DNA of 63,936 nucleotides, filler included, from Perkinsus olseni (taxonomy: Eukaryota), in the NCBI GenBank assembly GCA_013115125.1. It is 3 parts of 3 records of this genome, joined end to end, with 100 filler letters (N's around TTAATTAATTAA, not from the genome) between each part and the next. Parts side by side here need not be neighbours in the genome. Positions count along the whole stretch, not along the records: positions 1 to 22,145 come from JABANN010000544.1; positions 22,246 to 44,382 come from JABANN010000545.1; positions 44,483 to 63,936 come from JABANN010000599.1. One strand, given 5' to 3'. Positions 3,126-60,364 of this stretch are shown in pieces; positions within the stretch are counted from its first letter, which is position 1; each line of letters starts with the position of its first letter. A program made the position numbers and the translations under genes. The notes beneath the pieces are model-generated. The model did no database searches and was not told the origin of the DNA. It was given only the letters and a program-made list of their open reading frames with translations.

Positions 3126-6100
3126 ATGGCCAAAGGCAACGTCTCCCAGAAGAAGAGGACGCTGGTGCGTTGCGCGACTCTGTTCGCCGTGCCACCGCTC
3201 ATTCTCCTGTTCGGATGGGGTTGGATAACGCTAGGTCAGGTGTCTTCAATTCCTTCCCATCCCATTCCTTCGCTCTTCTTGTCTTCTCAGGCGTTTCCTT
3301 GGGGATTTCGGTGCTGGCTTGTTTGGCATTGATATTTGCGAGAAGCTCGAGCGTTTCTCGGTACCCTTTCCTCTGGCGATTGATTGTAAGTTCACGTTGA
3401 ATTTGGGGCGAGCTTGGTTATATGGAAACATGAATAAATAAGCATGAGCGAAGCAATCAGATCTTCGGATATGGTTGAAAGCCTCGGCATCATGATGAAT
3501 TATAATGAAAACTCAAAAAATTTTCCGAAATGATCCGAAAATTTCAGGGTTTTCGGGGAATTTCGAACCGTTCTTCGACTACTCTCCTATTTTTGCTCAG
3601 GCATTTTATCTAATACAAGTACTAGTTTGCGCAGTAGTCTACAGTATGGTCACCCCAGAGATGGACAGCAGAGCGAAATCGGTCTTCATTATGGCGCCCG
3701 GTGGTAAACTGAGGGGAGATGAGAAGGTCCAAGCTGGTGGGGCAGCGAAACAAAAGGAGAAAGGTAGTCCGTGGTTTTTGATCTGTCGGGCAGATAAGCT
3801 CGATTGGCCTCATTATGAGGACGGCTCGTGAATTTTATGGTATTGTATTGGACCGATTATAGAAATAGTTGAGTGGTTTCTTCTTGCATCTGTCATTGTG
3901 AGAGCAATGGAACTTCTCTCGATAAGGTCTGGTTGTTATCGGCAGTTTTCTGAATGCGTTCGGTGAGTAATTGGAGGCAATTCTGCTGCAGCCTAGATCG
4001 ACCCGTGTACTTCGCATAATATTTTACCCTGACGTAGTTCAGCACTCGGTCGTGGAAGTTAAGAGTAACGGAAAACTTGGTATTTATGCTCACTCAGGTC
4101 CTGAAGATTTCGCCCAACCCGGCGGAGCCTTGCCTGGCGGATTCATGGCCCAACCTAAGATCAGTGTCGTAATACAAAAGGGCGGCGAGGTGTCCATAGT
4201 GGCACTGAACTCCGTTGTTCGTTCGCGTGAAAGCGGGTGTCGCGGCGACACTGTCGCCTCGCGTGAAAAAACCCATTCGCGTTTCCACGCTTTTTCCCCA
4301 CTCGGGTATGAGTTCGGTAATGCGAAAAGCATAGTTGTTCTTTCCACGGTTAAATTACGGAATGGTTTTCTTCAACCTCGAAATTCCGGTGGGATAATTT
4401 CTTCATGGTTACCAATGGTAATTGATCGCTGATACTTCTCCAGATAAGTTCCCGAAAAGTTGGTATCGAAAATCGTCAGTTTCATATCTTGAAATCCGGA
4501 ATATATATACGATATGGAGTTCCGCTTCAACAAGCTTCGGTACACGCGGTCTCAAACTTTGCATCTTCAGATCTTTCGGTCATGTCGCGCGCCGCGAAAC
4601 TGGACCGGCTTCCCCCAGACCGTTTCGTGATGTATTTTCCTCAGGTCCTGCCCTGCGCAAACGAGGGAGAATTTATGGTTAAAACTGCTCAGTCAATTAA
4701 CGAGTTCACACCGGCGTATTCCCTGCATGAGGTTGTAAGTGGGGAAGTAGCATAAATCAGCGGGCGGTTGAGTGGTCGGAAAGTTCATATTAACACCTGC
4801 TAAAGATACGAGTGAGGAGTCAGCTGCGTTTTGATCATATTTTTCGGGAAATGCTTGACGTGCGGATCGCCATGCATGACCGTATGAAATGGCGCGGATT
4901 GTGATTGGGGAATTGTTCGGGTCTTCTGGGCGAAGCTGTCCAGGTTGATGACAAATGGTGAAATTGAGTGACTTTTGATGAGAAACTAGCAGCACCTGCA
5001 ACAAAGTCGGTTCATTTATACAGAAAGGAACAACGCTGGAAGAATTCTTCCACTGGAAATTCCTTGTAAGTTTGAAGTCGAAGTTCGTTGTGAAGTTGAA
5101 ATCTTCCACAAAAGGGGAGTCTCTTCTTTAGAAAGCTTGCGAAGACGTGTAAACGCGTCTTCACCACTTGGTGAGAATCTCTTTGAATCAAGCATTCAAG
5201 AGTGTATCGTGCATGGAAACCGATTTTTGGGGGGATTTTTATCAAATTTCTGGAAGAAGAAATGCCCGTGTTCGATTGCGAATCTACATGGTGCCAGGTT
5301 GTTGTTGATGATGGTAGTACTCCGCCCCTGAGGACACTTCTGACGGACGAACAACAAGAAAAGTAAGTGTGATCGGCAGGAAGTGTTTTTTTGGTAATTT
5401 ACTGTTTTTCACGGTAATTTACTGGTTATTTTTTGGTAATTTCCTGATAATTTTTTTAGGTTGAAAATCACTTGGGTGCGGCATGAGCATTTCACTGGTC
5501 TCATTAATGCTAAGAGCAAAGGTAATACCTAAAAAACTTTGCGACAGATTGGTGAGCTTGTACTGCTCTTTGCTGTGTGATGGTTTGAGGAAGAGAATCT
5601 TAGGTTGAACCTTGCTTGTTACGCAGGTGCTGCAGCTGCCACTGGTGATATCATCATTTTCTTGGATTGCCATGTTAAGCCTGCGGAAGGATGGGATAAG
5701 CCGATCGTCGATTTCATCAAGAGCAATTATAAGCGTAATAAGAGCGGGTGGCAGAGATATTATATTTTCGTTGACATATCTTTACGAACGAAGAGGTATT
5801 TCGGTTGCTCGTGGACACCCAATTCTCAATCTATGCAGGAATGGGTGTACGCGTCGTATCTTATGTCCTTGCTGGCATCATACGGAGAGGTTCATGTTGA
5901 TGATTTTGGCATTTAGTTTTACAAAAAAATAGGAAAAACTAAAACTCTTTTAGTTTTTGCTGAGGAAACCGAGTCTGGAAACCGCAGTTTGTGCTCCGAC
6001 GTTGCTCCAGTGAATCAGCAGGAAAATCCCAGAGTTACGTGTGGTTTTCCAGTGGAATTTTCTCATCTCGTATAATGGCACTGCGCTTTCTCGACTGGAT

Positions 6101-9100
6101 CTTTCTATTTTCAGGAGTCGTCGTGCCGTCCATTACTGATCTTGATCCCGACACTTGGGAAGAGCATCGCGGAGGAGGCGGCATGTCCAAGTGCTATCTG
6201 ACTTGGGATGCTGATTTCAAGTGGTTCACTTCGGATGATATGTAGTAATCTTGCTCTCTTGCATTTCCTCAACGCTAATGTATCAGGTATGTGCCGATCA
6301 TGTCCGGTGGCTTGCTTGCGATGTCTAAGAAGTGGTGGGATGAGACGGGGGGGTATGATGAGAATATGCTCGGTTGGGGCGGAGAGAATATCGATCAAAG
6401 TCTTCGGATATGGTTGTGTGGCGGAGAGATTGTAATAACGGGAAAGGGCGTCTACTGCGAAACTCGACTCCCCTGGATTTTCACGCGAAGTTTGGCAAAA
6501 CGGCGATGTAAAATGCGACATGTGTTTTTTACTAGTGTTTTTCGCACTGTGGGTGAACTTCCACCGGCGTCTGAGATTCTCAGTTTTGCTTTCGCTGCAG
6601 TTTTAGCCATTTTGTATTTTCGTACCTGAGCTCGGTGTTGGATCGTCACGAGATTAGTTACGAAAGTTTTGGTATGGTCAATTGTTTTTATTCATCCTCA
6701 GGTTAACGCGCAGGATTCCTATGTAGCGCACATGTGGAGGTTGTCCAGTCGGCCGAAGACAAGGGCTAAGTACACAGTACCGGGAGGAGCGGTCACTACC
6801 AACAGGTAATTTCGTGGCGCGTGACGGTTTGTTGATGACTTTTTTCACTGCGCCACGAAATTTGAGTGCATCAGGTACCGTGCTGCCATGGCGTGGTACG
6901 ATGAGTGGCTTGAGAAGCTCGAGACGTATCCGGAGTTCTCACAATTCGCGCCGGGCGGACTGCGGTACAAGGACCGTCCTGATATCAGTAAGATATCTTA
7001 TGCGCACAGCGAAGAGTATCTTATGTTGACCAGGCAATATCTTGGAGGTTAAGGAAAGGCTGAAGTGCAAGCCATTTGGGTGGTTCTTACGGAGGTAATT
7101 TCGTGGCGTGCGGAACTTTAATTGGCCCCTTCTGTTCGCGGCACGGGCTTTGTGCTACTAGCACAGAGCTAATGCCTAGCGTATCCGTCGATTAGGATCA
7201 TAACTCGGGTCCTAAGCGTGTATTAGAAAAGCATCGCAGACAATAGTGATTATAGCATTCCATGCGTGAGAGAGCGGCTAGTTCACAACATGGCGAGAGT
7301 TCCTCGTGGTGGAAAAAGGAGTAATTTTTCGGTGCAGTATCCGAAAACGGCGGGAAATTGTAGCTCTTGTGTTCCGAGCGAAGCAGTGATGGCGGAAATG
7401 ATAGGTATGTTTTCATTCTGAATCGATTTATCATCGTTCTCGCCGAAGCTGTTCAGTAAATAAATGCTTATGATAAATCAAAATTTCATCATCAGAAACT
7501 AATTAGCGACTATTGTTCGTAATGATAGCAATGAGGAAACGATTTATTCTTGCTGGTTGCCTTCAGATTTAAGAAGGTATATTTCGACGGTGGTCTGGTA
7601 CCCGATAAAGTATTCCACATAAAGGATGAGAGGACCAACATGTGCATTGAGCGCAAGGGAGGTGATAGCGGTTGGAAGCGCGAACTTTCTGTGGGCGAGA
7701 TAGAGTTTTTCTTGAGGGAAAAATTTTCGTGATTTTCAGATTTTGTGAAAATATTTCATCTGCTCGATGGTGGTCGGATCCCGGCCAGGTTGCAGCGGGT
7801 TGCTGGCAAGTTTTCGCCCTTTTTCGGTGGGAGCAAAATTACACTTCTCTTTTTTCTCTCATGCATTGACCGTCTGAGGTGAAAACTGGTTTTTGAGGTC
7901 TCTATGGGAGGATAGGAATGATCTGCGGGTCGTTGAAAGGAGTGTGGGAAGTTATCGTGGTCATCTCGGAGTTTGCCAGGCACTAAGGTAGTACTGAGGC
8001 CTTGTTCGGAGCAATCGCCTGGCCAGCTGTGGCATGGGGCGAATAGGGATACTCTTACTAACACATGTTGCTCGTCATTCCGGTAAGACCGAGGCACAGG
8101 TTCGATCCCGGCGAATGTTGTTTTTCGTTAGAAATTGGAACACTGATCAATGCCTAGCGATTGACTCTATTGGAGGCCAGTTATACACGGGAGTTTGCAG
8201 TACCTGGGGAGATTTCACCAGTCAATGGATTAAGCTGGATGAGGCTACGCATCAACTGTAAGAGGTCCCTGGTTCGAATCCTAGTAGAGATATTTTTCTG
8301 TATTTCTCAGACAAATTGCTCCTGGGGCTTATGCGAAGACCCGCAGTGGTTGCATTGGCGGGCAGCGGCCGAAGGGCACTGACGTGACGTTGGAGGATTG
8401 TGAGAATCCGAACTTCAGGCAAATCTTCAAGGTTGGATCGGGGCACTTCTTTGCTGTGCGGTCGATGGTGGTATCTTAGGTCGATGATAAGACAGGAGGG
8501 ATGTTGGAGGTTCAGAGTGGAGAGTGTCTTACTGCAGCGAATGGCAAATTCGAGTTGTCACCATGCGAGATTGATAGCGACACTGGAAAGGTACATTTTG
8601 TGGCAACTGAAAAAATCTTGGGCTGATGCGTGCAAGTCCTGATATCAATTTTCCCCCGTGATCAGGTTGGAGGAGAGCAGAAGTTCTCTCTTGTTGACTT
8701 CGATGGCAAGACTCGGATCGAGGCACGAGATCTTGGCGGCCAGACGCTTTGTGCTGATAGTGCCTCGGGAAGCCAGCTTCTATTGTATAGCTGCTACGAT
8801 GCTACTGTAAGTCGGCCGGTGAAGCATGGGTGGGCGTATCTTTCGACGGTTTCGCATCATTTGAATGCGGAGGCCTTCCTCTGAGATCTTTCCTCATCAT
8901 TGGAGTTTGACGGATTCATTAATCGCATTGCGCGGCATATAATTTCCGTGAAGTAGAAGCACGGAAGTAATCGGTATGAAACGATTGCATTTGCAAGGAA
9001 AACGCATGAGCAAGGATCGAATGAACGATGAAATGGCGTGATGAAATAGCCGCACATGTCATCCGTTGGAGAACTAGCAAGATGGAGTTTGGCGCTTGTT

Positions 9101-12100
9101 TTCCTTTACCGTCCTCCCGAACGCGACTGGAACTCCATCGTCGTTTGTTATTCAATTTCGTTGGATTATACAGCCAGTGACCGATATAGAAGTTCAGAAT
9201 TTTTTTCGGGGCGCGAGGAGCATTCTGTCGATGGTTACACAAGTATGGAACGGTTGATCGATTTCGAAGTCTCACGCCTGATCATTCTGACTGGTACCAT
9301 GGACTGCCAGATGCCGAATAGTGAAGAGCGGGGTTACAGTTACACCCCTACAGTTACAGGCGCGAAGGCAATGTTTTGGTTTTTCAGTACCACAATACCA
9401 ATCAAGCCTGGAAATTTGAAGACAAAATTAACGGGGGAGCGATACGGTAAGGGTGGAGCAATTCGGCGTGGTGAATCCTTCAACGTTCGCGTCTGACCTT
9501 AGATTCACCGGAGGCTCGAACTTGGGTAAATGTTTCTCGGTTAAGAACGAAGCGAAGACGACTCAGCCGGTAGGTAGCGGGCAAGAGCTCACGCATTGTC
9601 TTCAGCTATCCGCACATGTATTGGACAACTTTATTTTAGGTCGTTCTGGAAGGTTGTATCTCGGAAGATGGCATGACGAAATACGGTCAAAGATTCAAGA
9701 AGGAATCTGTTACTGGTGAGCTGAGGAGTGCGAAAATTTTGATAGATTTTTGCTGTACTTCCATGGAAATGTAGAGAAAATAGCGAGAAAGAACTCACGA
9801 ATCAGCACGGAGTCGCGGGTTTAACGCCGCTAGCGACTCAGTTAGGCATTTTAAATGTCACATTTTCCTGCTGAGGTCCAGAAACAGATCGATGTACGAG
9901 CATACACAGGACTGCATCAGTTTTGATTCAAATATCCGGCAGAGTCGGGAAATTGCGGGTTCGGAAACTGCGAATTCACCCGTCGATTTCTGCTCTCATC
10001 CGTAATGCCCGAGAAGCATGCTCCGTTTGACATTCGAAGAATGAGCAAACAACTGCACTGCAGTAACTGTAGCCGGGTCGCGGAGAGCAGTTGAACCCTC
10101 TCTAGCAGTGAGCCATCACTGTGAGGTTTTGTGACTTGTCCGCTCAGCTGGCAAAACTTGCGCACTTCTGGCGAGAGTTCACATGAAAGTTGGAGATGAG
10201 GATCGACTTCTCAGCTAGGCACCCTAGCCTAGGGTCCGCGCTCTTCGCCTGAACAACATCAGTCAAAAAGCTAGAGGCGATGACTCGCGGCAGATGTTTG
10301 GCAGGAACTTCTGGCGCGCTGTTCTGGACTTGCCGATTCTGGCAATCCTGAGGCACCACAGCGTAACGCTGTCAGCGTTGGCATCTTGATCAACCGGTGT
10401 AACACTCAGTTGCATCATATTGTCTTGAGCTTCCCGGTACTGTTCGACGACGACGAGGCGCAGTTCTCTCTCGCGCGCCGACTTTGCCCTCCACCTTCTT
10501 CGCTTTGATCTAAGCGCAGGGCTATGCGCGAGGAAGATGTTGTCGCTAACTGTTTCTCGTACCATATGGTAATGTCGATGAAACCGGCGAGCAGCGCCTG
10601 CACTTGCAAGTAAGCCAGAGACTGGGCAGTCTGCCGGCATAGCTATTGCAGTGAGATTGTGTTTGGGAGGCAGGAGAAGTAAGTTTCTGAACTCTTATGA
10701 GAAACCCGCTCGTTCCGTCGCGAGGCTCATGGATGCTGGTGAAATGAAGGAAGGAAACAGCCTATTGTTGAGACTGATTAACCGGAGTTTCACCCGAGAC
10801 AAAGGCAGCATGGGGGGGGGTTTCAATTGTGACGATTTGGGATCTACGGCCCGTGATTTTTAACGCAATATGGCGACCTGTTTGCAAGTGCTAAGGCAAG
10901 TTATGGTAGAGTCTATTGAGGGTGGTGAGCTGAAGAAGATACTGTGTGGTACTGTAAGTTCTGTGACTTCCATCAGTATACAGATAACCACACACGGTTC
11001 GGAGATCACTACAACGTCTAGCAGCTAGACTAGAACCTACTGCAAAAGATAACGAGGGAGGGTCTCCCTCTGCATCTGGCTTCTTCCGAAGGCGTAGGAG
11101 CTTCTCGTGGTGCCTCCGTGCATTTAAGAGTTCTCGGGGAGAGATTGATGAAGATGATGATCATGCCCTGTTGTCTGTGTGTTGTCTAGCCATTTTCGTC
11201 GAGACCTTAACAGGTTCTCGGTGGGAACAGGATCAAGGGTTGCTTCAAGCAACTTGCTTGTTCATCATCTAACGCTATGGGGAATTTCCTAAACTTCCGC
11301 GCGAACGGTTATGTCAATACTACTAAGGGTGGACCACGGAGATCGGACTGTTTCCACTTCTTTCAGCTGATGGGAAGTACTTTTCCCTTCGGGACGGCAA
11401 TTGGTGTCTGGGCGCGAGCGAGAAGACTGGACTTGCGGTAAGTCGGGGATGGCATTCATCGACGAGATTTGCAAATGGGAGCTCTCACGAGGTTGATTTT
11501 TTTCCGATGGTTCGGCAGGTGTCGCAATGTGACGAGGAAGCTTCATCGCAGAAGTGGGAGTACGCTAAGTTCAAGGGCCTAGTGAATCAAGAATCTGGAC
11601 TGTGTTTGGACGCTGGTGGAGGAAAGCAGGCCCAGTTGTAAGATACGGGCTGGAAACTTTTTGTCATATGGATCGTATATTTGACTTCTCGTTCCTGTAT
11701 GTGGTACCTTCGGTCGGAGGCACTACCTCCGAGGCATAACCTTGCGAATGCGCTCCCTTTATACAGAATCATCTTCGTTTCTGACCATTCGAAATCCTCC
11801 AGGGTTTGCTAACGGATTTTTTTCTTTAGAGTATCGCAAATTTTTTTCTTCTCATTTGTTTCGTAACCGTCTCGTAACCAATTAATTTGTGAAGGCATTG
11901 CAGGATCCTTCAACACTACCACACTAGAAATGGATTTTTTTTCACTGATCGAATCGCGAATCGAATTTGAAGTCATTCCTGCTTTTTCAGGTATACTTGT
12001 TATACAGATGGCAGCAATTCCAACCAAGTTTGGGAGTTGAACGAGGCCGGCTTCATTCGAGGAGGCCCCGATCGAACTTGCTTGGATTTCGCTCCGGTGA

Positions 12101-12657
12101 GTCCTGCGAGCTCGAGTGTTGGCAATTCGAATCGCGTTTGTTCAGGTGTCTGACGCTACCCTCAGCGGGGTTCAGTGCTCTCAGGCGAAGAACTTCAAGT
12201 GGGCTATTTACAAGCCTTTCGTAAGTCCTTGTCAGTTGCCGGGGATTTTATGCTACTTTCCAATTGATAATGAGTTATGCCGTAGAATGGGACAGAGTTC
12301 TAGATGCGCTATTGTACCTCGACCTCACCTGTTATGAGAGTGAAGGAGCCGTTTCTTATTATTTCGTATTTCGATTTACTAAAGCTAGTTGTGACGAGAC
12401 GGGCCGTCTTCTCGTCCCAGCTGCCGTGGTCAAAATTTTTCACCACATTTTCGCCCCGGTATAACGATGTTGTTTGACAGATGTTGTTGAAACTCACGTC
12501 CTTTTTTGCTTCAATGTCGACAAGTGGATCATCTTGTGAAAGATTTCAATACCTTAAGATGGATGATGTATTCTTTCAGGAGCCCTTGGAGACCCGACTT
12601 TACCACGAGGCTGAGCAGAAGTATCCTGCGGTGCTCGCCAGCGCTGATGTTAACTAA
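3126..12657 (+). CDS. Polypeptide N-acetylgalactosaminyltransferase (GT27) with extended ricin-B lectin region; many exons
   Basis: Spliced reading: N-terminal hydrophobic segments, then KISVV|VLPCANE, VVVDDGS, GLINAKSKGAAAATGDIIIFLDCH (DxH), PIMSGGLLAM, GGYDENMLGWGGENIDQSLRIWLCGG, VAHMWR, LKCKPFGWFL. Then ricin-type CLD/QxW repeats to TAA at 12655-12657. Confidence 0.92.
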
Positions 12658-12758
12658 GTCCCTGATGTTCCATTATCGTCGCCGAAGAGTCGTCGTAATT
12701 TGAATAGGTTGCCGAGTGAAGTCCTTAACTTATCTCGAAATTTTCCTCTGTTTTAACA

Positions 12759-15700
12759 ATGACGACAACAACTATTACCTTCCTCAGTCCTTTAGTTCGG
12801 GTAGTGGGAGTTGCGTTTATTATACCAAGAGATTCCGGGAGTTGGAAAGACCTGTACGGAGGCGTCTACTGTCGTGAACCAAAAGGCCCCCGGTTCGAAC
12901 CCCGAGAGGTGCATTTTCATGCCTGTAATTTTGAGATGTTGCGGGTGTTTTGAGTATGACTAATCGCTCTCCGGTGGTGAACTCATCTGCCGAGCAGCTA
13001 GTGTTGTATCGTCATAAGCGGGCCTTGCAGAATCTACTTCGGAAGTGGCTGGAGAGACTCTCCGCGAAGAGTATTGTTAGTGGAGGGCGGCAGCCTCACG
13101 GGAGCGCTACCTTCCATAGAGGTGTGGCCCGGGTTCGATCCCTGGTGAGGGTATTTCCGTGCATTCCTAAGGTACAGGGCTGAAGAATAGTCAGCTGGAG
13201 CAGCTGTGGACCGCCCTTTTTGGTTACCATTGCGAGTCCATCAATGAGCTGCAGTTCTTGCATGCTGTCGAGACCAGCGACGGGTTCCCTGATGAATGGA
13301 CTTATCGGGAGAAGGTGGGAGCGAAGGCTCGGGGATGACCATCGGTTGTCGAGTAGAACATCTGATTGGCGACTTCGTGATGAGACCGACTCATTGAAAA
13401 CACAACGCCCGAGTTTCGCCGTTTTCTCGTCATGCGCCACTCAGTTGTTACTGCTGTCTAATCTGTCGTCTTTCGGAGAACTGTCCAGCTGGTCTCGTTG
13501 CCAGCGGTGCAAATGAGGCCTGGCTGACTTGATTCGATGGTCGAATTTTCACGAGACGGGCTGCCTGTGGACGTCCCGTTATTTCCATTTTTCAGGTGGA
13601 TCTTTACCGACTCCTTTGGTTCTCCTGTTGCCGTGGATCAGCACTGGATGGGCTCGGCACGATATTGACCTCCCTGGCATCCCCTAGCGAGCTGTCGGCC
13701 AAGTTGCGGCTCTCGAGGGAGTTCTGGCTGCAATGCGAGGTCCTCATGTTATTACCAGGTAGCGTGGGCTTCACTCAGTGGGGATCGTCGGAATTTCGTG
13801 GCGCGCGGTCAAATTTTGGGTACTGCCTTTAGTATAGATTGTATGCCGATGCTGAAAGTCAGAATTTCTCGTTGCGAAGCAGTTTCAAAATCGAGAGCTC
13901 CGCCTTCGGTGTTGTTCTGGTGGGGGGACGGACTGTTTGGCGACACGCCTTCAACACCGTCTTCTTATCGAAGATGGGGGCTTGTGATGACTGCGCGCTA
14001 CACCATTTCGCGATCAAATCAAATAAATTCGAGAAGCGGTGTAGAGGCCGTAACTTCTTAGCAACAGAGGCTTTGTGGCGAACATTTTGGTACAGGGTAG
14101 AACTTTACCCTTTTTGCTGAGTTGGACTGTGCGAAATTGAATATCGATTCAGTGCCGGAACCGAACCTGGGGTCTTTGTCTAGGACGCCTGGATGCCTGA
14201 CCGTTGTGCCATTTCAGCGAATAATCCGAAGTTTTGCCTCTCTCCGACGGTCTCCTGCGATGATGTGGACATGATCTGCACTGATGTTGCCCGAGCTGTG
14301 GCCTACCGACGGAACGATCTGTAGTGAGGGGATTGGTCAACTGTGCCGAGCGAATTCACCGGGCTGGACTCTTTGGGATCGCTCGGAAATGTCTTCCTTT
14401 TCCCGATTAAAGTCTTCGTATCAACTTTCTGCTGCTGTGAGGAAGAGTGTACTTTCCCTTGTTTTTTCCATGTGAATGTGATTGTAGCATAAACCACCTC
14501 TGGCAGAATCTTAGTCTCGGGATACTGTAGGAGGTTTTACTCGTGTGTCGAAGTTGCTCTCCCTATCGCTATAAATATGTCGTATCATTTGTCATTGTTC
14601 AATTCTCTGCTGTGCGGAAAAATATCTTTTGTTCGAATGGTTGTTACCCCCTGCCTCAAGGTCCATGTTGGACATAACGAGTAGCGAGTTGACATCAGCT
14701 GAAGAAGTCCAGCTGCTGCCCGGTCGGCCGTACAGGCTGGCTTTGATACGGCAGGCCGTTGGGAGGATCGTCGAGGCCTACTGTCAGGATACTCGCATAC
14801 CCATGACATGTGAGATTAGGGTATTTTCGTGGCGCGCGAAGTGGTTCTTCCGGTGCATCAGCGATAGTACCTCCACCTGCACCGTCTCAAGACTCTCGGA
14901 AGGGACAGGGCGGCTCTAGCATCAGCGGAACCACAGTGAGTGGGGAGGGGGGCTGCGAGGATTCCACCGCCGAACTGTGATGAACTAGTTTGACGAGAAT
15001 CAGCATCCGGTCGTCCATTTTTGGACAGTCTGGGTTGATGATACGTCGAAGTTCTTTCTCCGATTCTCACGAACTCGGCTTTTCTCTCGGGAGCCGTTCT
15101 TGTGGGCTGCTACTTCCGAATCGCTGGTATTTTTCGATCAGTCTACAGCCTTTGAAGGGCCGTGGAGGACGGATGCCCTTTGTGAAGCGTGTTTGATGTG
15201 GGATAAGAGGTAGGGTGGACTCGTAGACTTTTCCCACTTCCCGTGGAGTTATCAGTAGAATATCGATCGCTCGTTTCACGTTATCAGCCATCATGTTCAA
15301 CTGAAGCGTTTCTCATACCACAATTCGCGCAAATCGGGGGGGGGGGGCTCGGGGCTTTCGAGTTGCTACTGGAACCAGTCGTGTGGAGGCGCGGCAATGA
15401 GACACTTCGTGCTCTTTCTTATCGTCGGAGCGAAGCGCATGAGAGGTTTTCTCAGGAGAGTGGAATACGGTGTCTTGGCCAACGGAGACTTTCACACCAA
15501 CGCCCGCCGGCCATTGCCAGCATGGATGGTGAAGACTTTGGAGGAACGTCTTGCAAGTGGTAGTAATTCGTCGAGGAAATGCAAGTGTTCTAGATTGGGC
15601 AAGCGGCTCTGGCCTGTGCTTCAGGTGAACAATCGAGCGACTTGCCGGTTGGGAAGTCAGCAGCTCGGTAAGGTAGCCTAGGGTCGACCTTGGATACTTT

Positions 15701-21993: not shown

Positions 21994-22145
21994 GTGAGTC
22001 ACTCTACACCTTTTCCCGGGCAAATAAAATGCTTTTTCGTTCGGTTTAAACCATTTTGATAGCAATTTAGCCAGTGTCATTGGAATTAAAAAATTGTCAA
22101 ACCAAATTCGTTTTGCCACCCAAATTAATATTATGAGCAAATATG

Positions 22146-22245
22146 NNNNNNNNNNNNNNNNNNNNNNNNNNNNNNNNNNNNNNNNNNNNTTAATTAATTA
22201 ANNNNNNNNNNNNNNNNNNNNNNNNNNNNNNNNNNNNNNNNNNNN
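22146..22245. other. Assembly gap containing an artificial TTAATTAATTAA all-frame stop linker
   Basis: N-run with TTAATTAATTAA at 22190-22201. The same structure occurs at 44383-44482. Confidence 0.95.
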
Positions 22246-22405
22246 GGGGTTTTATGGTCACATGTCGCGAAAAATGGTTTGGGCAGGAAAGAGCTGTTGT
22301 CCAAAGGAGCGCTGACGCCCTTGGGTAATGGAAGCATAACGCCGCCAAGCTTTGCATTGTGCTTCAGACGTTGTAAAATTGTTGTTGATAATAATAGCGA
22401 TCACT

Positions 22406-24988: not shown

Positions 24989-25026
<38 letters not shown>

Positions 25027-28142: not shown

Positions 28143-28200
<58 letters not shown>

Positions 28201-31435: not shown

Positions 31436-35590
<4,155 letters not shown>

Positions 35591-36266: not shown

Positions 36267-36393
36267 GGTCGAAGCACGTAAGATACCCTACAGGTCGAAG
36301 CCCGAAAGATACCCTACAGGTCGAAGCACGTAAGATACCCTACAGGTCGAAGCACGTAAGATACCCTACAGGTCGAAGCACGTAAGATACCCG
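36267..36393. repeat. 26-bp tandem repeat (about 5 units)
   Basis: GGTCGAAGCACGTAAGATACCCTACA starts at 36267, 36293, 36319, 36345 and 36371. Confidence 0.93.
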
Positions 36394-36822
36394 TATCAAC
36401 CATCGCCTTACCTGTCGCCTCACCTGCCGCCCCATCTTTCCATACCATCCGAGGGAATTCTCAGCTATGAGGCACAGAGCACTGCATCCATCTCCGCCCT
36501 CGCCTGTAGCGGATATATCCACCATTCCTTCCGAACCGACCGAAGACGAATTCATCGCAGACGGTACGAACGACCGAAGCTGCTACTGATTCTGCCGCCC
36601 GACTGCCTCAACGCAGACCTCAAAAACGACAAGGAGACTGTAAGCTCCACAAGACTGATGAGAGCCACCACCACGACGACAAATTCACGGCGGAATCACG
36701 TTCCATTAACAGCCTCCAGACAACGGAGTTATATAAAATGCCCGACCCGACCCGACTTGGACTCGGTTATCATGACGATAAACTATAAACATGACTATCA
36801 AATGAGGGGAAAAGTTGTAATG

Positions 36823-38373: not shown

Positions 38374-39218
38374 ACTCAAGGGAAGGCTTATGACAGATGA
38401 ACGCAAGTTGTACGCAAGTGAGAGACAAGAGCGTTGAGGAATTGTAAGAGAGCAAGATTCGACGATTTTCCGCGCACCTCTGATTGTCCCTTTTCGCGGT
38501 GACGTTAGAGTTGCATGGAAATTGCAGCCCGTTGACTAAGTTCAATCTTCTGCATTCTTGAAAGCCTCTGCTCGCTGAGATCCAGCTCGACGCGGTACCC
38601 CACGGGCGTCGTGGGTAGCGAGAGTTACGTGAAGGAGAACCACGGCCGCGGATATGCTACAGATGACTGTCGCAGTCCGCCGCAAGTTACCTCTTAAAAA
38701 ACCAGTACCCCGTCGGGCGGACCGCTATCGGACGTCTATCGTCGCAAGCATGATGACCGGGGTACCGGCAAGCTGGTGTGAGAGACGCTACAGCAGCGGC
38801 ACGAGCTGCCCCATCGTCCGCACATTGTGCGTTGAACGTGAAACCTGTGAGGGGTGATGCAAACGCCTCCCCTCTCACAAGTTCCAACCGCTCGCGAATT
38901 TCTACTGGACGCTCCCTGAGTTTCCTTCAACTTGGAGAACAGCTGTGAATCAAGACTTCAAACTGGGCGTGAGTCTGATTAGAGGCAAGTCCACGCAGAC
39001 TGTGTTTTTCTGAATCAGACAAGCTTCAACCTTGGATGCTGCAAGCCCGTCAGCATGAGCGTTTTTCTGTTCTTCAAAAGTCCACACTTTCGACGCTCTC
39101 GTAAGCCTGAGCGCCACTCGTCGCCGAAAAATTTGAATTGATTTTGCGACTTCCCTCCCCAATATCTAGCAGGGTGTATCTTCTCCTGTGAGTTGCCTTA
39201 TACTCTACCTTTCCCTCT

Positions 39219-41225
39219 ATGACGCTATCCTGGTTTCTACTCATCGCGTCACCCAGCTTCGGTTATTCCGCTGGCACCAGGGGCAAATACGTACGCTGAA
39301 GATGCCTTAGTTCGTCGTTGTGGACGCTCGCTTCGTCATCAGACACCACGTCAACCCAGCCCGTTGCTGCACGAAGAGAAGCATACTGACGGGAGCGTGG
39401 ATGGCGGCTATCCTTGTTCGGTCACCTGCCCTCTCGACGGAATCAATTACGATCATTGCCGAGTATCCCTGGCGGGCGACTCTGGCAGCTCTGAGCTAAC
39501 CTGCGTATCGCCACGGTGAGTTTGTTATCGTTTTCTTGCTGCCGTGGTTGGAAGAGAGAAAGTTTGAGTAAAATCGTCGCAACGCCAAATATTTTACGAA
39601 AAAGTTGGTATTATCATTGTACATCAATCTTTCCATAGAATATATACTTTCAATGCTGTTATTCTTGTTGATTCCGCACTGTTTTCAGAAAGAGTTACAG
39701 GTGCACTCCAACTATTAGCGATATTTTTCTGGGAAATCAGCTGAAACTTCATAACATTATCAATCATTGACTAGGTTCACCAACAGAGAGGCAATTATCA
39801 CATCCTTCATGTAGAGCTTCAAGCGCTTGCCGGAGAAAGGCCAATCGGGCCCTCGCCACGGTCTTGTAGTCGAATAAGGTCACTCAGTAGCGCAGTCTTG
39901 CGAAAGATTTTTGCTCGGAGACGGTGCTGATGAGAACTTCCATCAGGAGTACCGCAATTCTCTTTGTTCAACTATGAGTTTTCAGATGGGTAGTCTCCAA
40001 GAACGTCTCGGATGTATTCGAGGCCGCTGCCTCCACCGAGATCGCCAACAGCAGCGGCCCCCCTTCTTGTCGTGATAAACTCCAATATTGGGTCCTCGAG
40101 TGGTGGCGAGGGAGTTGCCGTAACACATCCAGTCGTCTGCTAGATGTGATAGAGTATGAAGTGAATCGAGAGTACTCCCCTCAAGGAGGAGAGTCACATT
40201 GGCAGTGTGACCCGAGGAGCTTCTCCTTCCTACCATTCAATGAACTGCTTGTGGATCATAGCGGAGAATGGATCGAAGGAACACACTCACCGCTGGAACA
40301 TTCTCAGGTGATTTATTTGCTCACGGCCGACTCAGTGGTCCTGAGCCAACTGCTGTGAGTGCGTTACCGTAGGATTGAAAAGAATTCCCGATAATTGTTA
40401 CAGAAACGACGGGATTGTCAGCAGGAGCTCTACTGCCGCAGTAGAGCTCCTGCTGAGAAATTCTCAGCGAGAATCCTGTCGTTTCAGCTCGCCATTCGAT
40501 GAGGTCGCGACAGGGTCTGGAAAATCCGCGGGCTGTGCAAGCCTCGATCGAGGTCATCGAGAGCAGGTTCTCACCGACCCTGAAAGCCCGCGCGCTGTAG
40601 ATGAAAACGAGTTGCCGAAGAATGTTGTATTACATCAGGCCAATAAGAAATTCTGGGAGGAAGACGTGAGAAACACAATTTGAACTCTCATTGACCCGTC
40701 CTCCATTCCCGCAGCCTTTCGTTAACGCCATCTGGCAAGAGTGGAACGACGATCCCGAGGGCTCCGACTGGGATCCGTGCTTCCTCCGAGCCCCGACGCG
40801 GAGAAATGAGAAATCCCTCAATAATTGTCATCTTGGACTGCTCAATAGAAAGAGGACTTACCTGTGGTGTGAAGACTTTGGAAGGAGAAGGGGCGTGTAA
40901 CGAAGATCCCGCTTTGCTCGCTCGTGCAGTGGTTGTTTTTAGGCCAAAATTGAAGTCACTGTCGCCATACATGGAGCTCTTCACAACGCCTAATGTCCAC
41001 GGCGGCTGTTACGGTAGAATAACGGCATTCGTACAGTCAGCCATATACTTAGAGACGGAGGGAATGTTCTCATCGGATGAGATGATCGATGCTTTTTACA
41101 AGGCGATCGAGGAGGACCTCGGACCCAAACGTGGGACTTCGTCGTACCGTTTTGAGATGACCAGTCCCGACACCTTCGTCTCCTATGCCCTGGAGCTTCT
41201 TCATGACGCGTTGCCTGCCACATGA
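39219..41225 (+). CDS. Hypothetical secreted Cys/Trp-rich protein (multi-exon)
   Basis: Signal-like MTLSWFLLIASPSFG. GT-AG-bounded exons GYPCSVTCP, CRDKLQYWVLEWWRGSC, DWDPCFLRAP and HGGCYGRITAF. Stop at 41223-41225. Confidence 0.55.
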
Positions 41226-41611: not shown

Positions 41612-42440
41612 CACCATTTCCAGACCTACTTAGTGAAACCCCAGAGGGATTTAATGAAGGCCAGAGCAAATCAGTAAATCGCCAAAGCAATTCAGTAAAG
41701 CTCAGGTTGAATTAGTAAAACCCCAAAGCAATTTAGTTTCATGAAAGACCAATTTAGTAGAGCCCAACAAAGTCACCAACAAGTACGGGAAAAACTCGCA
41801 ACCGGCAGTCTAAATAAAATACGCTCTCTGTACATATCGTAGGTTGGACATTCGAACCGAGGCTCCGACTAGCATGCCTTCCGTAGCTGAGCAACGTGGG
41901 TACAACGTTCGGGCGTGATTGAAGCATCGTATACAAAGTTGCACCGTACCAACCGCTTCAACCCCAGTTTGAAGCAACTTCCTCCAGTACGACAGGAGGT
42001 ACTCTGCCTTCATTCCGCCGCCTCTCCCGCCACTCATGGCCGGAGTCCCCAGGCCGGGAGGAAGGACGATCCGGATGCGTCTCGCGTGCTGACTAAATCG
42101 CTTTGGGGATTTACTATTTCGGTCTGGGCTTTATTAATTTGCTTTGGGGATTTACTATTTCGGTCTGGGCTTTATTAATTTGCTTTGGGGATTTACTATT
42201 TCGGTCTGGGCTTTTTNNNNNNNNNNNNNNNNNNNNNNNNNNNNNNNNNNNNNNNNNNNNNNNNNNNNNNNNNNNNNNNNNNNNNNNNNNNNNNNNNNNN
42301 NNNNNNNNNNNNTTATTAATTTGCTTTGGGGATTTACTATTTCGGTCTGGGATTTATTAATTTGCTTTGGGGATTTACTAACTTGGTCTGGGCTTTGTCA
42401 AATTGCTCTGGAGTTTTACTAAGTAGGTCTGGAAATGGTG
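41612..42440. mobile_element. Non-autonomous DNA transposon (foldback/MITE type) with long TIRs and a probable TA target duplication
   Basis: CACCATTTCCAGACCTACTTAGT at 41612 is the perfect 23-bp reverse complement of the sequence ending at 42440. Imperfect complementarity continues for more than 80 bp. TA lies on both sides (41610-11, 42441-42). No transposase ORF visible. Confidence 0.85.
42099..42410. repeat. 41-bp subterminal tandem repeat array (interrupted by gap 42217-42312)
   Basis: CTTTGGGGATTTACTATTTCGGTCTGGGCTTTATTAATTTG at 42101, 42142, 42183, 42324 and 42365. Degenerate inverted copies at about 41630-41770. Confidence 0.92.
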
Positions 42441-43260: not shown

Positions 43261-44382
43261 GGTGAGTGCGAACCGCGGCCTCGAGTGGCAACGGACTGAC
43301 GAGTCGAGGCAGGGGATGCCGAACCTTCCGCAGGTGAGCACGGGCCTCCATCAACAGACAGGCTCATAGGAAGCGTTGATTCGTTTTCCTGAATTGGTGT
43401 TGTGACGATGTAGTTTAGCTGAGTGTGAAGCTGCTGAGAGGTTATGGCTGCTAGAGTAGCATAAAATTATAGGGGCGGCTGTCACTCCACTCTGCTCTAC
43501 ACAGTTCGTGGTGAACACAATCAGAGGACTTCAATTCAGATTTCCGCCGGGACTTCTGCGCCTCGCGGGGCTGGCAAGAGAAGGAGATCTCCGAAGAGAA
43601 AGATATCAAGGTTGGGTGGCAGCACGCTTTGGATTAAGAACGTGAGCATCGCTCCGCCGTAAGATGCGCCATTTTAGGTGTTCAGCCCTTCGTTACAACC
43701 CTGTGGGCGATGTGGAAGCAAGATCATCACGGTGACTCGAAGTGGGACCCTTGTCTCCTGCGGGCAACAACTCGGCAGAAGGGCGACTGCTATCTGGGAT
43801 TGCTCGCCGGGTCCTCCCGGGCTTACATATGATGTAAAAACTATGGGCAGACTGGAGAGAGGTGGGATGCGGTTCGGCAAAGGAATGGGGTGGTTCTGAG
43901 GAACTAATCGATAGGAAGACTTCAATAGGGGAACACAGTGAAAGTAGCTAGTGTGAGAACAGTCTGTTCTCAGACTGTCAAGGGTCTCACTGTCAACCGA
44001 TGTCAAGCATCAGTCGCCTTCTCATGTGTCTATCAGACACATAGGAGGCGGGACATCGAATTGGGTCCCTTCAATCGATGTCCAATTATAAGGATAATTG
44101 GTGTATCCGACTTCACTACAGTGCTCCAAAGTACTCCGTTAGACTATAGTCTAAAAACTTAATCTAGCCTCAACAACCACTGAGAGTTTGAACCTGATTT
44201 ATTTACTCGCCCTTCGTTACGACGATATGAACAGACTCTTCAAGAACTGTGACCGTTTCATGCTCGCAAACTGATATATGGGCGAGCGAAAATTTCACCG
44301 GGCGACACCAGTGTACCAAAATCGATATCTCTCTGCTATAACTAGATAAGCCAACTCGACTCCAGCTCCTTTGTATACCAGC

Positions 44383-44482
44383 NNNNNNNNNNNNNNNNNN
44401 NNNNNNNNNNNNNNNNNNNNNNNNNNTTAATTAATTAANNNNNNNNNNNNNNNNNNNNNNNNNNNNNNNNNNNNNNNNNNNN
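44383..44482. other. Assembly gap with TTAATTAATTAA linker
   Basis: N-run with the linker at 44427-44438. Confidence 0.95.
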
Positions 44483-44585
44483 GATCGTATCATAATATAA
44501 TCGGCTCACTGGAATACGTGACCATAACCAGATCAAAATCAACAAAATCATTACAGGCGCGTCATAGGGTTCTTGCTGTCTTCCA

Positions 44586-46488: not shown

Positions 46489-49400
46489 ATGACTTCAACC
46501 ACCGACAGCAGCAAACCACAGGCGGTGGAGGTCACGAAGGGCAGACCACTTCAACTAGTGACTATTAAGATGGCCGATAATGAGGTAGAGAATAGCAGGT
46601 CACTCTTCCGTGTGGACTGTCTGAGCACCTTCGGGAGTGGTATGCTCAACAGATTCGATAATGATGTTGATTTTGGCGGGGTGTCATCTCCGCTGGTAGG
46701 TTCGTGTGAACGACGACGCCATGGACGAACTCACGAAGAATCTAGAAGCGACCGGTTGCGATAAGATATCAGTAGTATCCATCATGGGAGCTTATCGCAC
46801 TGGTAAAAGTTTCATGCTCGATCTGTTCCTGCGGTAAGTAGAGTGACCTCTGCATCCGACCATCATTGACGATCTATAAGGTACCTCCGTTACACTGATG
46901 GCAAGGAGGACACCTACTATCCCTTGGGTAAGTCTGCCCTCTCAGTACTGCCAGACTGATCGTGCATTTCTCAGGGGATCCTGCTGCGCTTAACAAGAGA
47001 AGGGGTAGCAGTTTCAATGCTGAATTCCAAGCACCAGAATGGCTGGTCGCTCAGGTAGTAGTAACAGGGCAGGTCGGTCTAGTCGGTTGGATTGTCTCGT
47101 TTAGGGTGATTGTCTTCAAGAAGGGCAGCAGGCTTCGGATTCGCATGGCTTCCATTGGCGGCCTGGCATGGACAAGTAGCGTACGTCTGACGGCGGGAGG
47201 GAGAGAGCTTTTATTATCAGGTGTACTGAGGGTATTTGGGTCTGGTCGATTCCGTTTGTGAGGCAATTGCATTCGGGGGAGAAGGTAGCCTTGGTCCTGA
47301 TGGACACTCAGGTAGGGGCGTGGGGTGGCAGTGTCCGCTGATATTGTCCGTTACACCGGGCGTAAAATTCTCATCCGGACGCCGTTGTTTTTGCAGGGAG
47401 CGTGGGACTCTAAGATGACGAAGGAACAATCAGCCACCGTGTTCGGTCTCACTGCTGTTCTGTCTAGCAAACAAATATATAATATATCCAAGCAGATTCA
47501 GGAGGATAAGGTAATCACCTGTCACAGTGTAATCGGGCACATTCTGAGTGTCAGGTCGAAAATCTTCATTTTTTCATGGAAGTGGCCTCGGCGGCATTAC
47601 GTGTGTCCGGAGATGAGAACGCCCAGGAAGGAAAGCCCTTCCAGTGCTTGGAGTAGTACGGGGGTTGTCCAGCTGGGTCGGGCTGATGGTGAGTATCTTT
47701 ATTTCCTGTGAGGTTCTTGGTTCGAGATTGGGCTAACTTTGATGATGATATGTCCATCAAGGATTGCGTAGCCCAGATGAAGGAGCATTTGGATCAGCAC
47801 ATGGGTGAGCTTTTCTCGCCGCCTGTCCCTGCTTCACTCGAGGCTCCGCATTCCGTTGTTGAATAGGCGGATTGTGGGAGATTTGCTCTTATCTATAACC
47901 AGCATATCGCGCCCGAGCATTCTCATACGGCATGCGTGATGAGAGATAATTTGGGAATGATCAGTCAACTCTGTTAGATGAGCACCGAGTGCGAGATGAT
48001 TCCACCGCAGTGGCGCTGAACAAAATGTTCGAGAGCGTCTCGTGCTTCTGTCTGCCACATCCTGGCCTGAAGATCCAGAAGAAGGGATGGTCGGGAAGGC
48101 TGGGTGATATTGATCCTGATTTCATAAGGTCTGTGCTGGGCTTCGAACCAGGGACCTGCAGGATGCGAGTACTGCTTAGGTTCCTCGATCTCTATGTTCG
48201 TTCGGTTTTCACTGACCCTCATCTCCACGCCAAGAGCATCCTCGGAAAAACCCTCTCGCCGCAAACCTTCGGTCCTGTTGTCAATGCCTTCGTAGAGGTA
48301 GTCGCCGTTGAATTTCGTGGCGCAGCGGTCATTTATCCCTCAGGCGTTTGCTAACGCCGTTCCTGCTGCTGCTACCTTCACCCAGGCCATGGCGCGCAGC
48401 AGTAATCTTTTGGGCAAGGAACAGGCCATCAATACTTATAAATCTGATATGGAGGCGGCTATGGGGTAATAAAGGACCGTTTGGGCACACTCATTGTTTG
48501 AGAGAAGTTTGACATTATACAACCGAACCGAGCCGTCATCACGAGCGATTATCTAATACAACCGCAACGAAACCGCTTGGTTCTGTAGGGTTCCGAAATT
48601 GCTGTTACTTACGGGTGGTTGTTCTTTTAGACCGAAGACTGGTAGTGGAATTAAGCCGGATCAGCTCGAGCGTGCTTCCATAAAGGCGAAGACTATGGCC
48701 TTGCAGAGCTTCTCTAAGCAGACACTCTTCGGCCCTGATGTAGGGGTAGAGCGGCTTCGTCTTAGATTATGGTTTGTTGGTAGGATGAGAGGGAAAAGAC
48801 CAAGGACGAGCTCGTGAAGGAAATCGATGTAAGGAGATCAACGCTCGCTGGTCGATTTTCGTACCAACTATCGCGGAACTTACTCGACGTTCGCTTAATA
48901 CGACGTGAAGCAGCACGTTGATAGTATCGGCATGGCGGAAGGGAGTGTGGTCTCGTAGCTATCATGGAGGTGGCGGAGCGTTTGTCTGCCTAGGGTCTCC
49001 TCGACTACTATAAGGATGAGAACCAGCGCCGTATGGACAAGTCACTAGCCGCCTTCGCTGGGGCTACAGTGTTGGTCATTGTACTCTATCTCATGGATAA
49101 GTTCTCTGACTTCGCCTGTGATTGGTAATGAGGCCTCTTCTCATCGATGCTGTGTCATCTACCGCTGTTACAGGTACTCTGACACTTGCGTGAGGTTTTC
49201 TAATATCCTCTTCTCGATCTACTTCACCATCATTGTCGTCATCGGCGTCAATGTATTCCTACTGTAAGACCAACCATTCTGTGCTTCGGGAGAATACTCT
49301 TCCTCAGGTACCGAGACCGTGGCCAGGTTGCGGCTGCGTCTGCCTTGATGGAGATGGTCAAAGAGTCGGTGAATCTTGGGCTAGGGGTACTCAGGGGCTC

Positions 49401-57600: not shown

Positions 57601-60364
57601 ATGCGAGAGGTCATCACGTGTCATCTCGGCCAAGCGGGATGTTCTGTGGGCCAGAAGGTCTGGGAGCTCTTCTGTGTTGAACATGGCATTGAACCAGACG
57701 GTAGAGCATGGGAGAGAGAACTCGTCCGCCTGTTCATCGAAGCCCTTTTTTTCCGAGTCTTTTCAGTGTGATCACGAGCTTCGATGAAAGGGGCTTCTAT
57801 CGGTTACGCTGTTTTTAACAAGCCGATTGGGCGCATGCCCCCTTCTGAGGGGCATGTTAAGTCGAAAACCTAGTGGGTGGGCTTCATGATCAGGAACGAT
57901 GCCGAGTGACGAGTCCGTCGGGTCTATGGAGGATCCCTTCAACACTTTCTTTCACGAGACTCCATCAGGGCAGCACGTCCCTCGAACCTTATTCATGGAC
58001 ACTGATCCAAGTAATAAAATGCTGTCAGGTGGGATCGAACCCGCGACTAGAGGATGCTCAGGTACTAAGCACGAGATACTTGGGCCGCGCTCCAAGTGGC
58101 GTGATCTGTATAATCCCGAGCAAGTGATGGGGTACAAGCAAGATTGCCGCAGTAACTTCTTCGAGGGCAGAACGCAGGCGATCGAGTAATACCAGGGTTG
58201 GTCGTCGCTTGACTCCGGGGGATTGAGATAAGGCACAATCTCTCAAGATCGAACTGCAAGCTGAGTTCGTGCTTAGTGCTGACTATCGGGGCAAAATGGC
58301 GGAGATCTACTTAAATGGGGACGATGTTTGCAGGTACCATATAGTGGACGAGATGATGGACAGGTTGCGGAAGGAGGCTGATAAATGCTCCAACCTGGCA
58401 GGATTCTTCGTGAGCACTCGCTGATACCCTAGCACACGTTGTTGAGCTCGCGACGTTTCAGACCTTTCGCTCTTTCGGTGGAGGGACGGGCTCGGGGATC
58501 GGCTGTGAGCTGCTGGAGGCTTTGAGGGAACAGTTCGAGAAAAAGGTAGTGACCTTACCGTAGGACTTGGGTTCGATTTTTCCCGGCCTGACCACTTTGG
58601 CTAAGATAGCTCAGTTGTGCATTGCAGGAAATCTCACAATGATTCTCACAGGTTATCCTAGAGCCCGTGTTGTACCCCAGTGCCGAATACAGCAGCTCAG
58701 CGGTTGAACCGTAGTACTTCCGAGAGGTGATCTCTGCAGGACTTGATCAGATACAACTGTCTCTTTGCTACTGCATATAGCAAGGCTGTCTGTGATCTCT
58801 CTCTCATGCTTGATAATCAAGCGGCCTATAAATTATGCCGTGATCAACTGGCAGTCAAAAACCCGGTATTTATCGAGAATCGGCTCTGATGGTGCATGGT
58901 GATCCTCTCAGACCTTCTATCATCTCAACCGGCTCATCTCCCAAGTCGTATCGGCTTGTACGACCTCCCTGCGCTTCGAATCCATGATCAACGCTAGTCT
59001 GCTGGAGATAGTCCATAACATAGTAGAGGCCCCTGTACGCCCGTCATCGGGCCTGTGTTGTATCTCAGGTCCCTACCCCGGTTTATAGGTATCCTATAGT
59101 ATCATTATCACCGGTGCGCCATGCATCGCGGCATAGGTAGTGCCAGTTGGTTGCCCATAAGAATCCTGATCTATTTCGTGGCGCAGTAGGCATGAATCCT
59201 TCTCCACCAAGGATATAGTTGTTGACCTTTTTGAGCCCAAGAACTTTCTTTGCGATGTTGGCTCGACGCTGCGGTTGAATCGCTATCTGAGTGTGTGCGT
59301 ACTGCTAAGGTGGGAAGAGAAGGTCGTGGGTTCAATCCCTTGTCACTGTATCTGAAGAGGTACTGATCCCCGTCACGACGGAGGTCCGGGCACTGTTGGC
59401 CCTCCTATGCAGGCGGTAGCATTCTCAATGGCTCGCCGTCTTCCTACCCGCCCTTGGTGTCTTCTCAGGTGGATGCCATGCAAGCGATCAACGGCCTATG
59501 TCATCCCAAAGCCAGCTATCGTGCAGCGCTGCGATTCCTACCGTGGATTGGTGAGGGGAGGCCTTACGCTGGGCGCGAGCCAGTTGTGGTTATGCTGACC
59601 GTCGGATCTCTTCGATGTTTGCTTCGAGCGACTCATCATGAAAATACGCCCCTGGCCACTCTTCTCGATGCCTCTATCCTCAGAGTCCGGATTCAAAGTC
59701 GGCGTTGTTGGCGTACCGCCCACCATACCTCCTGGTGGTGATGGTAAACCGTGTATGGCGCCTAGCGATCGTCAGGGGTGCCTCCTGGCTAACACTACTG
59801 CAGTCAGGACGATGTTCTTGAGACAATATAAGAAGTTTTTGCAGGTGAGGTTTAGTAGGGTATAGCCATCTATGATTCTGAGCGACGGAGCGGGTGACAG
59901 ACGGGCTAGGCTCTTTACTCGGACCCAGACTAGCTGAAGCGCCCTGGCGCTGATCCCATTGCCCTGAAGCGCTCGGCTGTTTTCTCTTTTGTAGTTATTC
60001 TATCATAAGTCGTATGTTTGGCAGTTCGTAGATGCCAACGGCGAGATGGATATGTTCTACGAGGCAAAGGAAATTGTGAGGACTGTAAGGCCGTAAGCGC
60101 ATATGGGCGCGTTGCATACCACTCCTTTCGTTAATTATCTGTCGTAGATCATAGATGACCACGAAGCGTTACTTCAGCAGTGCATGGAGAAGGAGAGCGA
60201 AACCAACGTTGTAGGGTACTCTGCGGGTTTATATCGTAAAGTCACTCCAGTTGGAGATGGTCGGTGCCACAATACATCCTCATGACGCCCATGCCGCCGC
60301 CGAGGATAATCCTACCCCGCTCGTGGATGAGGAGAACGATCAGAGAATTGCCCAGCGGGGTTGA
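57601..60364 (+). CDS. Divergent alpha-tubulin-like protein (about 14 exons)
   Basis: [107 protein letters not shown] at 60362-60364. Confidence 0.9.

Follow-up and report, generated by a model that had tools for sequence, protein, structure and literature searches.

A short intronic motif in Perkinsus olseni, possibly the end of a miniature palindromic repeat that can supply splice sites

Perkinsus is the lineage sister to dinoflagellates and an important parasite of shellfish, and its genes are packed with introns of 40-70 nt. Here we describe a short motif, AATTTCGTGGCGC followed by G or AG, that recurs in introns of unrelated genes within a window of 63,936 nt of P. olseni DNA; the window is the whole stretch analyzed, and all counts, shuffles, simulations and tRNA searches refer to it. 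We read the motif as the end of a tiny intronic repeat, resembling a miniature inverted-repeat transposable element (MITE) or an introner, whose ends can act as splice sites, and consider the chances of this reading to be about even. On this view the copies would stem from a mobile or duplicative element that inserted or was copied, and some of the introns would owe their origin to it. If a tiny repeat does seed introns with its own splice signals, introner-type intron gain would extend to the Perkinsozoa, and Perkinsus would offer a very small, tractable model of an insertion becoming an intron.

The motif is repeated beyond chance

The 13-mer AATTTCGTGGCGC occurs five times exactly, eight times with at most one mismatch and ten times with at most two, in comparison to means of 0, 0.08 and 1.52 in 100 third-order Markov simulations. 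A search with TTTCGTGGCGC at up to one mismatch returned 10 matches, 7 of them exact; the mean over 100 dinucleotide shuffles was 1.03 and none of the shuffles reached 10. Few non-simple 11-mers in the window are repeated more often than the 11-letter core of the motif. Since 0/100 shuffles reach the count and the simulations contain no exact 13-mer, the repeated motif is confirmed as an observation. All of the coordinates given for it in an earlier sequence-only reading of this DNA hold, and direct comparison of the copies at 6806-6828 and 32430-32452 confirmed the 23-nt identity that had been noticed between them (23/23 nt).

A product of chance or of composition around a CpG-containing word is therefore a practically negligible explanation, and for the eight strong copies it is refuted by the simulations, the shuffles and the 23-nt identical pair. 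What speaks for it comes from the margins of the searches. Matches to the 14-mer at three mismatches number 14 against a simulated mean of 4.76, and we graded this level (9202 and four others) as noise. In metagenome contigs, in which no Perkinsus DNA was found, a 19-mer search gave 14 loci, about the number estimated by chance, with one match each, mostly in bacterial-looking sequence of high G+C and with flanks unlike those in the window. A separate scan of metagenome contigs with the two-arm hairpin pattern described below gave no loci.

Copies lie in introns and at splice sites

Nine of the ten scored copies are intronic, the remaining copy (13792) is unplaced, and none lies in a mapped exon. 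Relative to the gene, six are in sense and three in antisense orientation. Strong copies are held by six mapped introns across five unrelated genes, encoding a glycosyltransferase, a helicase, an atlastin-like protein, a tubulin-like protein and the protein P0127 (Table 1). The two best-mapped genes, with 19 introns each, have three introns with a strong copy. The position of the core recurs, at +3 in two introns and at +14 in two unrelated introns of 46-52 nt.

The motif furnishes the splice sites at three intron ends, two of them donors and one an acceptor. The donors, 6806 and 7095, are the first letters of its GTAAT... arm. A 2826-nt RNA contig spans 6431 to 7978 with 371 nt between, and the exons 6702-6805, 6875-6987, 7034-7094 and 7567-7659 add up to exactly this length, with GT-AG introns throughout and a single open frame. 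Therefore introns 6806-6874 and 7095-7566 both start with GTAATTTCGTGGCGCG, as had been read from the sequence. Both donor joints are inferred from these lengths and the frame, neither being among the 15 of 43 joints listed for the transcript. The acceptor belongs to intron 59137-59189 of the tubulin-family gene. There the frame of the upstream exon ends at 59137, and the Tubulin_C match lies in a frame opening within the motif. The AG at 59188-59189, previously proposed as the acceptor, fits this frame and domain match; an AG 3 nt upstream is also in frame. The copy at 59172 itself stops 5 nt short of the intron end.

Elsewhere the copies are internal to the intron. The donor of the intron holding the copy at 14821 is 14810 and not the GT at 14821, as revealed by tblastn of P0127 (gene start 14665). 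In the atlastin/GBP-like gene, the spliced junction across 48298-48343 reproduces the P. olseni protein P0121 exactly. The copy at 32430 does lie antisense within an intron of a Prp43/DHX15-type DEAH helicase, as had been claimed, and the minus-strand variant placed at 4584-4601 is present as a degenerate copy at 4588-4601. The copy at 13792 was put into an intron by a custom gene finder, which we rejected. The finder recovered the RNA-supported introns of the glycosyltransferase gene, but it also fused neighboring genes, and P0127 shows that its "intron" around 13792 spans a gene start; it was not used as evidence. A homolog search with the open reading frame (ORF) upstream of 13792 gave no match.

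Anatomy of the repeat

Intron 6806-6874 consists almost entirely of a palindromic copy, with arms at 6808-6824 and 6845-6862, followed by a 12-nt tail that ends in the acceptor. The complete palindrome measures about 56 nt (6807-6862) and is predicted to form a 17-bp hairpin. The intron folds with -26.5 kcal/mol and a z-score of -4.65, which none of 200 shuffles equaled, while six other stretches containing the motif folded unremarkably. Among the 27 mapped introns of up to 130 nt it is the sole one with z below -3 (about -4 in that comparison). We therefore rejected the idea that introns here are commonly hairpins.

In an alignment of nine copies, nine columns of the core do not vary and the similarity breaks off sharply on the left; GTA(A/T) stands directly before the TTTCG core in four copies. 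The copies take two forms, ...GGCGCG(T/C)G and ...GGCGCAG(T/C)(G/A), which differ by one A and correspond to the two arms of the palindrome 6808-6862. Similarity reaches beyond the core in several pairs: the copies at 14821 and 32430 share 29 nt at 86%, GTGGTTCT included, and those at 48312 and 59173 share 30 nt at 80%. The 3' end GTGCATCAG is common to introns 6806-6874 and 14810-14861 and has only three occurrences in the window. Most copies are half elements of 23-36 nt, and the shared sequence covers 13-36 nt of introns of 46-69 nt.

Units bearing the motif also appear to occur next to other sequence. Contigs from RNA run X2 have loose ends exactly at 6807 (in front) and at 6862 (behind); they match the hairpin and run on into unrelated sequence. 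In runs X24, X2 and X10, contig matches to the window set in at 13790/13791, preceded in the contigs by two differing, unrelated sequences, and an X10 contig departs from the window at 6826. The loose ends cited here are among those listed, and 91 further ones exist. Contigs that join the motif to unrelated flanks suggest that such units occur elsewhere, with the motif at the unit edge; likewise, the 23-30-nt homology between copies within the window stops sharply at the outer edge of the motif.

Taken together, these observations suggest the following arrangement. The motif, AATTTCGTGGCGC with G or AG, would make up the outermost 13-18 nt of a dispersed, very short repeat whose family lives in spliceosomal introns. 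The full form of the repeat would be the palindrome of about 56 nt that makes up nearly the whole of a 69-nt intron, like a miniature MITE or introner. The tip of the left arm, GTAAT..., gives a usable 5' splice site where it abuts an exon in sense (6806, 7095), and the other arm, ...GGCGCAG(TAG), can in sense give a 3' splice site (59189). In other introns the copy is internal or antisense and fills much of an intron of 46-52 nt. With a GTAAT... tip and a ...GCGCAG arm, the repeat could thus furnish splice sites. The sequence-only reading had offered an independent micro-element giving donor or acceptor sites as one of two options; it is the better supported of the two, and the evidence fits it (two donors, one acceptor, the palindrome, the sharp edge of homology and the contigs with other flanks).

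Several observations weigh against a mobile or copied repeat. Both arms are present at only one of nine loci (17-18 nt inverted arms, 6808-6862), and the others are single arms. Pairwise alignments of 300-nt windows around the copies never exceed 30 nt. A consistent target-site duplication was looked for at the five mapped motif introns and not found; CAGGTA stands at both borders of 6806-6874 only, and the same letters are the splice consensus. No transposase or autonomous partner was seen in the window. The X2 ends at 6807 and 6862 are not assigned to one contig in the loose-end table. Finally, nine invariant core positions with varying flanks in the nine aligned copies also fit a selected binding site.

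Such a site is the main rival to a copied repeat, although we think it rather unlikely. The motif would be a cis-acting element recognized by a DNA- or RNA-binding protein; intronic splicing enhancers and sites for a transcription or chromatin factor are examples. It would be kept by selection in non-coding DNA and not copied. Its occurrence in both orientations, its absence from mapped exons, the recurring offsets (+3 twice, and +14 in two unrelated introns) and the invariant core with diverging flanks are all consistent with this, and other short words (GGTTCGATCCC, ATCTTAGGTYGA and TACCACTCCTT) also recur in non-coding DNA of the window. However, the conservation of the core is partly circular, because the copies were ascertained by the core. 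An identity of 23 nt and similarities of 29-30 nt exceed what a binding site needs, and the position within the intron varies between the 5' end, the middle, the 3' end and the antisense strand. The ends of the 56-nt palindrome coincide with loose ends of RNA contigs, which a repeat unit fits better.

Mirtrons are hairpin introns that are processed into small RNAs. The 69-nt intron 6806-6874 is similar to a mirtron in that its hairpin begins 2 nt after the donor and leaves a 12-nt 3' tail, but its stem has only about 17 bp and the hairpin is known from predicted folding. Between the arm at 6806 and the intron of the Prp43/DHX15 pre-mRNA, complementarity is perfect over 23 nt. Palindromic copies might conceivably be mirtron-like introns yielding small RNAs, with the single-arm copies in other introns as their targets in a pre-mRNA network, a scheme that we regard as improbable.

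Relationship to tRNA

The other option of the sequence-only reading, that the motif is the 5' half of a tRNA-like element, is unsupported in the window. The A-box consensus TRGCNNAGYGG fits one of ten copies (48318, exactly), and its count of 2 in the window, in comparison to 1.88 expected, indicates no enrichment. Co-occurrence with a B-box had been proposed as a check, and none of the ten copies has a B-box-like word (up to two mismatches) at tRNA-like spacing of 30-60 nt. Within 400 nt downstream on the strand of the copy, a B-box-like word turns up once, as an exact match 157 nt from the copy at 59172 and already in the next intron. ARAGORN found no tRNA gene in the window and Rfam returned none, either at the gathering score or at E<=10. 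From the absence of A-box enrichment, of a linked B-box and of a tRNA match, we conclude that in the window the motif does not form one half of a tRNA-like element.

Descent from a tRNA, to which this option of the sequence-only reading corresponds, appears to us slightly less likely still than a selected site. In this case the motif would represent the 5' end and D-arm of a tRNA-derived short interspersed nuclear element (SINE), or of captured fragments, and the T-arm-like words of the introns would represent the 3' part. The three ...GCGCAG copies fit the A-box at 10-11 of 11 positions, the two besides 48318 missing it by one letter; they match tRNA positions 8-19 and look like a D-arm. Position 1 of a tRNA would coincide with the edge of the homology. 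The T-arm or B-box word GGTTCRANYCC is enriched, with nine exact occurrences against 0.68 expected and none of 100 shuffles reaching nine. Against descent stand the lack of linked B-boxes and tRNA matches and the unenriched A-box, and in addition the six of ten copies of the ...GCGCG type have no A at the A14 position. Truncation of SINE insertions usually affects the 5' end and does not leave just a 5' tip, and a head-to-head palindrome is not SINE-like. Even so, the motif may have a remote tRNA origin, which could lie behind the MITE- or introner-like repeat itself. A bolder speculation would have new short introns start from captured tRNA fragments.

The GGTTCRANYCC sites lie at 8099, 8271, 12892, 13132, 30676, 32135(-), 33500, 58031(-) and 59329. 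Copies occur 11-20 nt into several short introns and have partly paired, T-stem-like flanks (GGTCGYGGGTTCGATCCC...). This word is the first intronic motif of the sequence-only reading, and its spacing shows no link to the present motif.

An origin from the spliced leader (SL) was also rejected: no SL-like sequence was found in the window, and the intron of the P. marinus SL RNA starts differently from the motif, with GTARATATCAG as judged from the primers in Table 1 of the P. marinus paper (PMC3101222).

Comparison with introners and tRNA-derived elements

Among the closest known systems is that of Amoebophrya, a parasitic alveolate close to Perkinsus. Its introners are likewise hairpin elements without an internal transposase, and a MITE-like origin was suggested for them (Farhat et al. 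2021, PMC7789003). As described there, the Amoebophrya introners are mostly non-canonical, have direct repeats of 3-5 nt and show no family-specific motif, whereas the Perkinsus introns are GT-AG and have one motif in common. A further difference is that one of the 27 mapped short introns of the Perkinsus window is a hairpin, and most copies are single-armed.

In a broader survey, introner families have median lengths of 30-654 nt; terminal inverted repeats were reported for 72/177 and target-site duplications for 49/130, with others having neither (Gozashti et al. 2022, PMC9860276). The Perkinsus motif resembles introners in that introns of unrelated genes contain repeated sequence, and in that an element may bring one splice site of its own, the other being recruited (PMC9860276). 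It differs in extent: introner families require similarity along the entire intron (PMC9860276), whereas the similarity here covers part of each intron. Perkinsus is not mentioned in the main text of that survey.

The ...TGGCGCAGYGG form is A-box- or D-arm-like, as in tRNA genes and tRNA-derived SINEs, and T-arm-like words are common in the same introns. Unlike these, the Perkinsus motif has no linked B-box, cloverleaf or A-box enrichment, and its arrangement is palindromic. Searches of the open-access literature turned up no account of introners, MITEs, tRNA-like intron motifs or the present motif in Perkinsus, although a subscription paper or a supplement could contain one. The finding is probably a new, very small member of the introner- or MITE-like class, in a lineage without reported ones.

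Gene mapping

Genes were mapped with contigs from four public RNA runs, exon-chain lengths, reading frames, Pfam and tblastn. RNA contigs define a plus-strand spliced transcript from 3385 to about 12796, with 43 joints, of which the 15 listed are GT-AG. It contains the GalNAc-transferase-like gene, whose exons match Glycos_transf_2 and Glyco_transf_7C in Pfam. Between 4098 and 6286, enumeration gave 1936 exon-chain solutions, and this stretch was partly resolved via Pfam and reading frames. In the gene at 3386-12579, 10 of 19 introns have a GT opening the next exon (CAG|GT) and many donors follow a G. Junctions are therefore often AG|GT, which is protosplice-like. The intron lengths in the window agree with P. 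marinus, where introns measure 39-1622 bp and most are shorter than 100 bp (PMC3101222).

The minus-strand DEAH helicase has the domain order Helicase_C, HA2_N, HA2_C and OB_NTP_bind. Its exon downstream of intron 32416-32465 aligns from residue 1 to Prp43/DHX15 chains, with a weak E-value of 0.19; helicases of this type make up 12 of the 14 matches listed, including the top 11. The exon upstream of the intron gave only chance-level matches to flavivirus helicases in the PDB search, and queries with the whole ORF gave none. In the atlastin/GBP-like gene, 10 of 20 ungapped exon segments match P0121 at 100%. Together with the POT/PTR2 transporter, whose best named relatives are Perkinsus proteins, this places the window in Perkinsus, nearest to P. 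olseni.

Table 1 Copies of the motif and other mapped features of the window
Feature	Position	Strand	Basis or remark
69-nt GT-AG intron, GalNAc-transferase-like gene	6806..6874	+	exon chain and open frame; Pfam glycosyltransferase matches of the flanking exons
Inverted copy (right arm), absent from the sequence-only reading	6849..6862	-	motif search
Copy beginning with the donor GT, intron 7095-7566 (472 nt), GalNAc-transferase-like gene	7095..7117	+	exon chain
Copy with core at +14 of the 52-nt intron 14810-14861, P0127 gene	14821..14850	+	tblastn of P0127
Copy antisense in the 50-nt phase-0 intron 32416-32465 (minus), Prp43/DHX15-like helicase	32430..32465	+	domains and alignment
...GCGCAG-type copy with core at +14 of the 46-nt intron 48298-48343, atlastin/GBP-like gene	48311..48341	+	
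...GCGCAG-type copy, 3'-terminal in intron 59137-59189 (53 nt), tubulin-family gene	59172..59189	+	Tubulin_C match and frames
Exact copy, unplaced, in non-coding DNA; the ATG at 14665 follows 873 nt downstream	13791..13810	+	
Degenerate antisense copy, 2 mismatches in 14, 43 nt upstream of the inferred acceptor 4644, GalNAc-transferase-like gene	4588..4601	-	intron inferred
Weak match, 3 mismatches in 14, in the RNA-supported intron 8807-9387	9202..9215	+	probably chance
POT/PTR2 transporter	36823-38535	minus	long ORF; 87% identity to a P. chesapeaki protein

Other repeats in the window

Another word, (GT)ATCTTAGGT(C/T)GA, recurs at 2662-2788 (a 42-nt tandem array), 5597, 8473, 16613, 29725(-), 31296(-), 35779(-) and 62728(-). 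It lies mostly on the strand of the local genes, and at 35779(-) just upstream of the helicase start. RNA supports its AG at 8479 as an acceptor, which places the word across an intron-exon border there, and it may represent a strong context for a 3' splice or trans-splice acceptor. A dispersed 11-mer, AAGGAGTGGTA, is found at six loci (27279(-), 30353(-), 32586(-), 34512, 60117(-) and 62903).

A segment of about 210 nt at 588-796 has very high contig depth in all four RNA runs (about 60,000 in X1), with small indels near 723-725 and no match in Rfam or Pfam. An abundant small non-coding RNA and a multi-copy sequence are both candidate explanations. The N runs at 22138-22254, 42197-42337 and 44375-44491, two of the three flanked by TTAATTAATTAA linkers, were read as scaffold joins and not as biology.

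A 26-nt tandem repeat occupies 36219-36418, and its unit contains the 5'-splice-site-like GTAAGATACCC. The word GTAAGATA also opens two mapped introns, at 6988 and 11638. Another intronic repeat, ...CGAAAGTTTTGGTAT, is present at 2548-2577, 4440-4466, 6645-6674 and 39585-39611, with two of its copies in introns of the glycosyltransferase gene.

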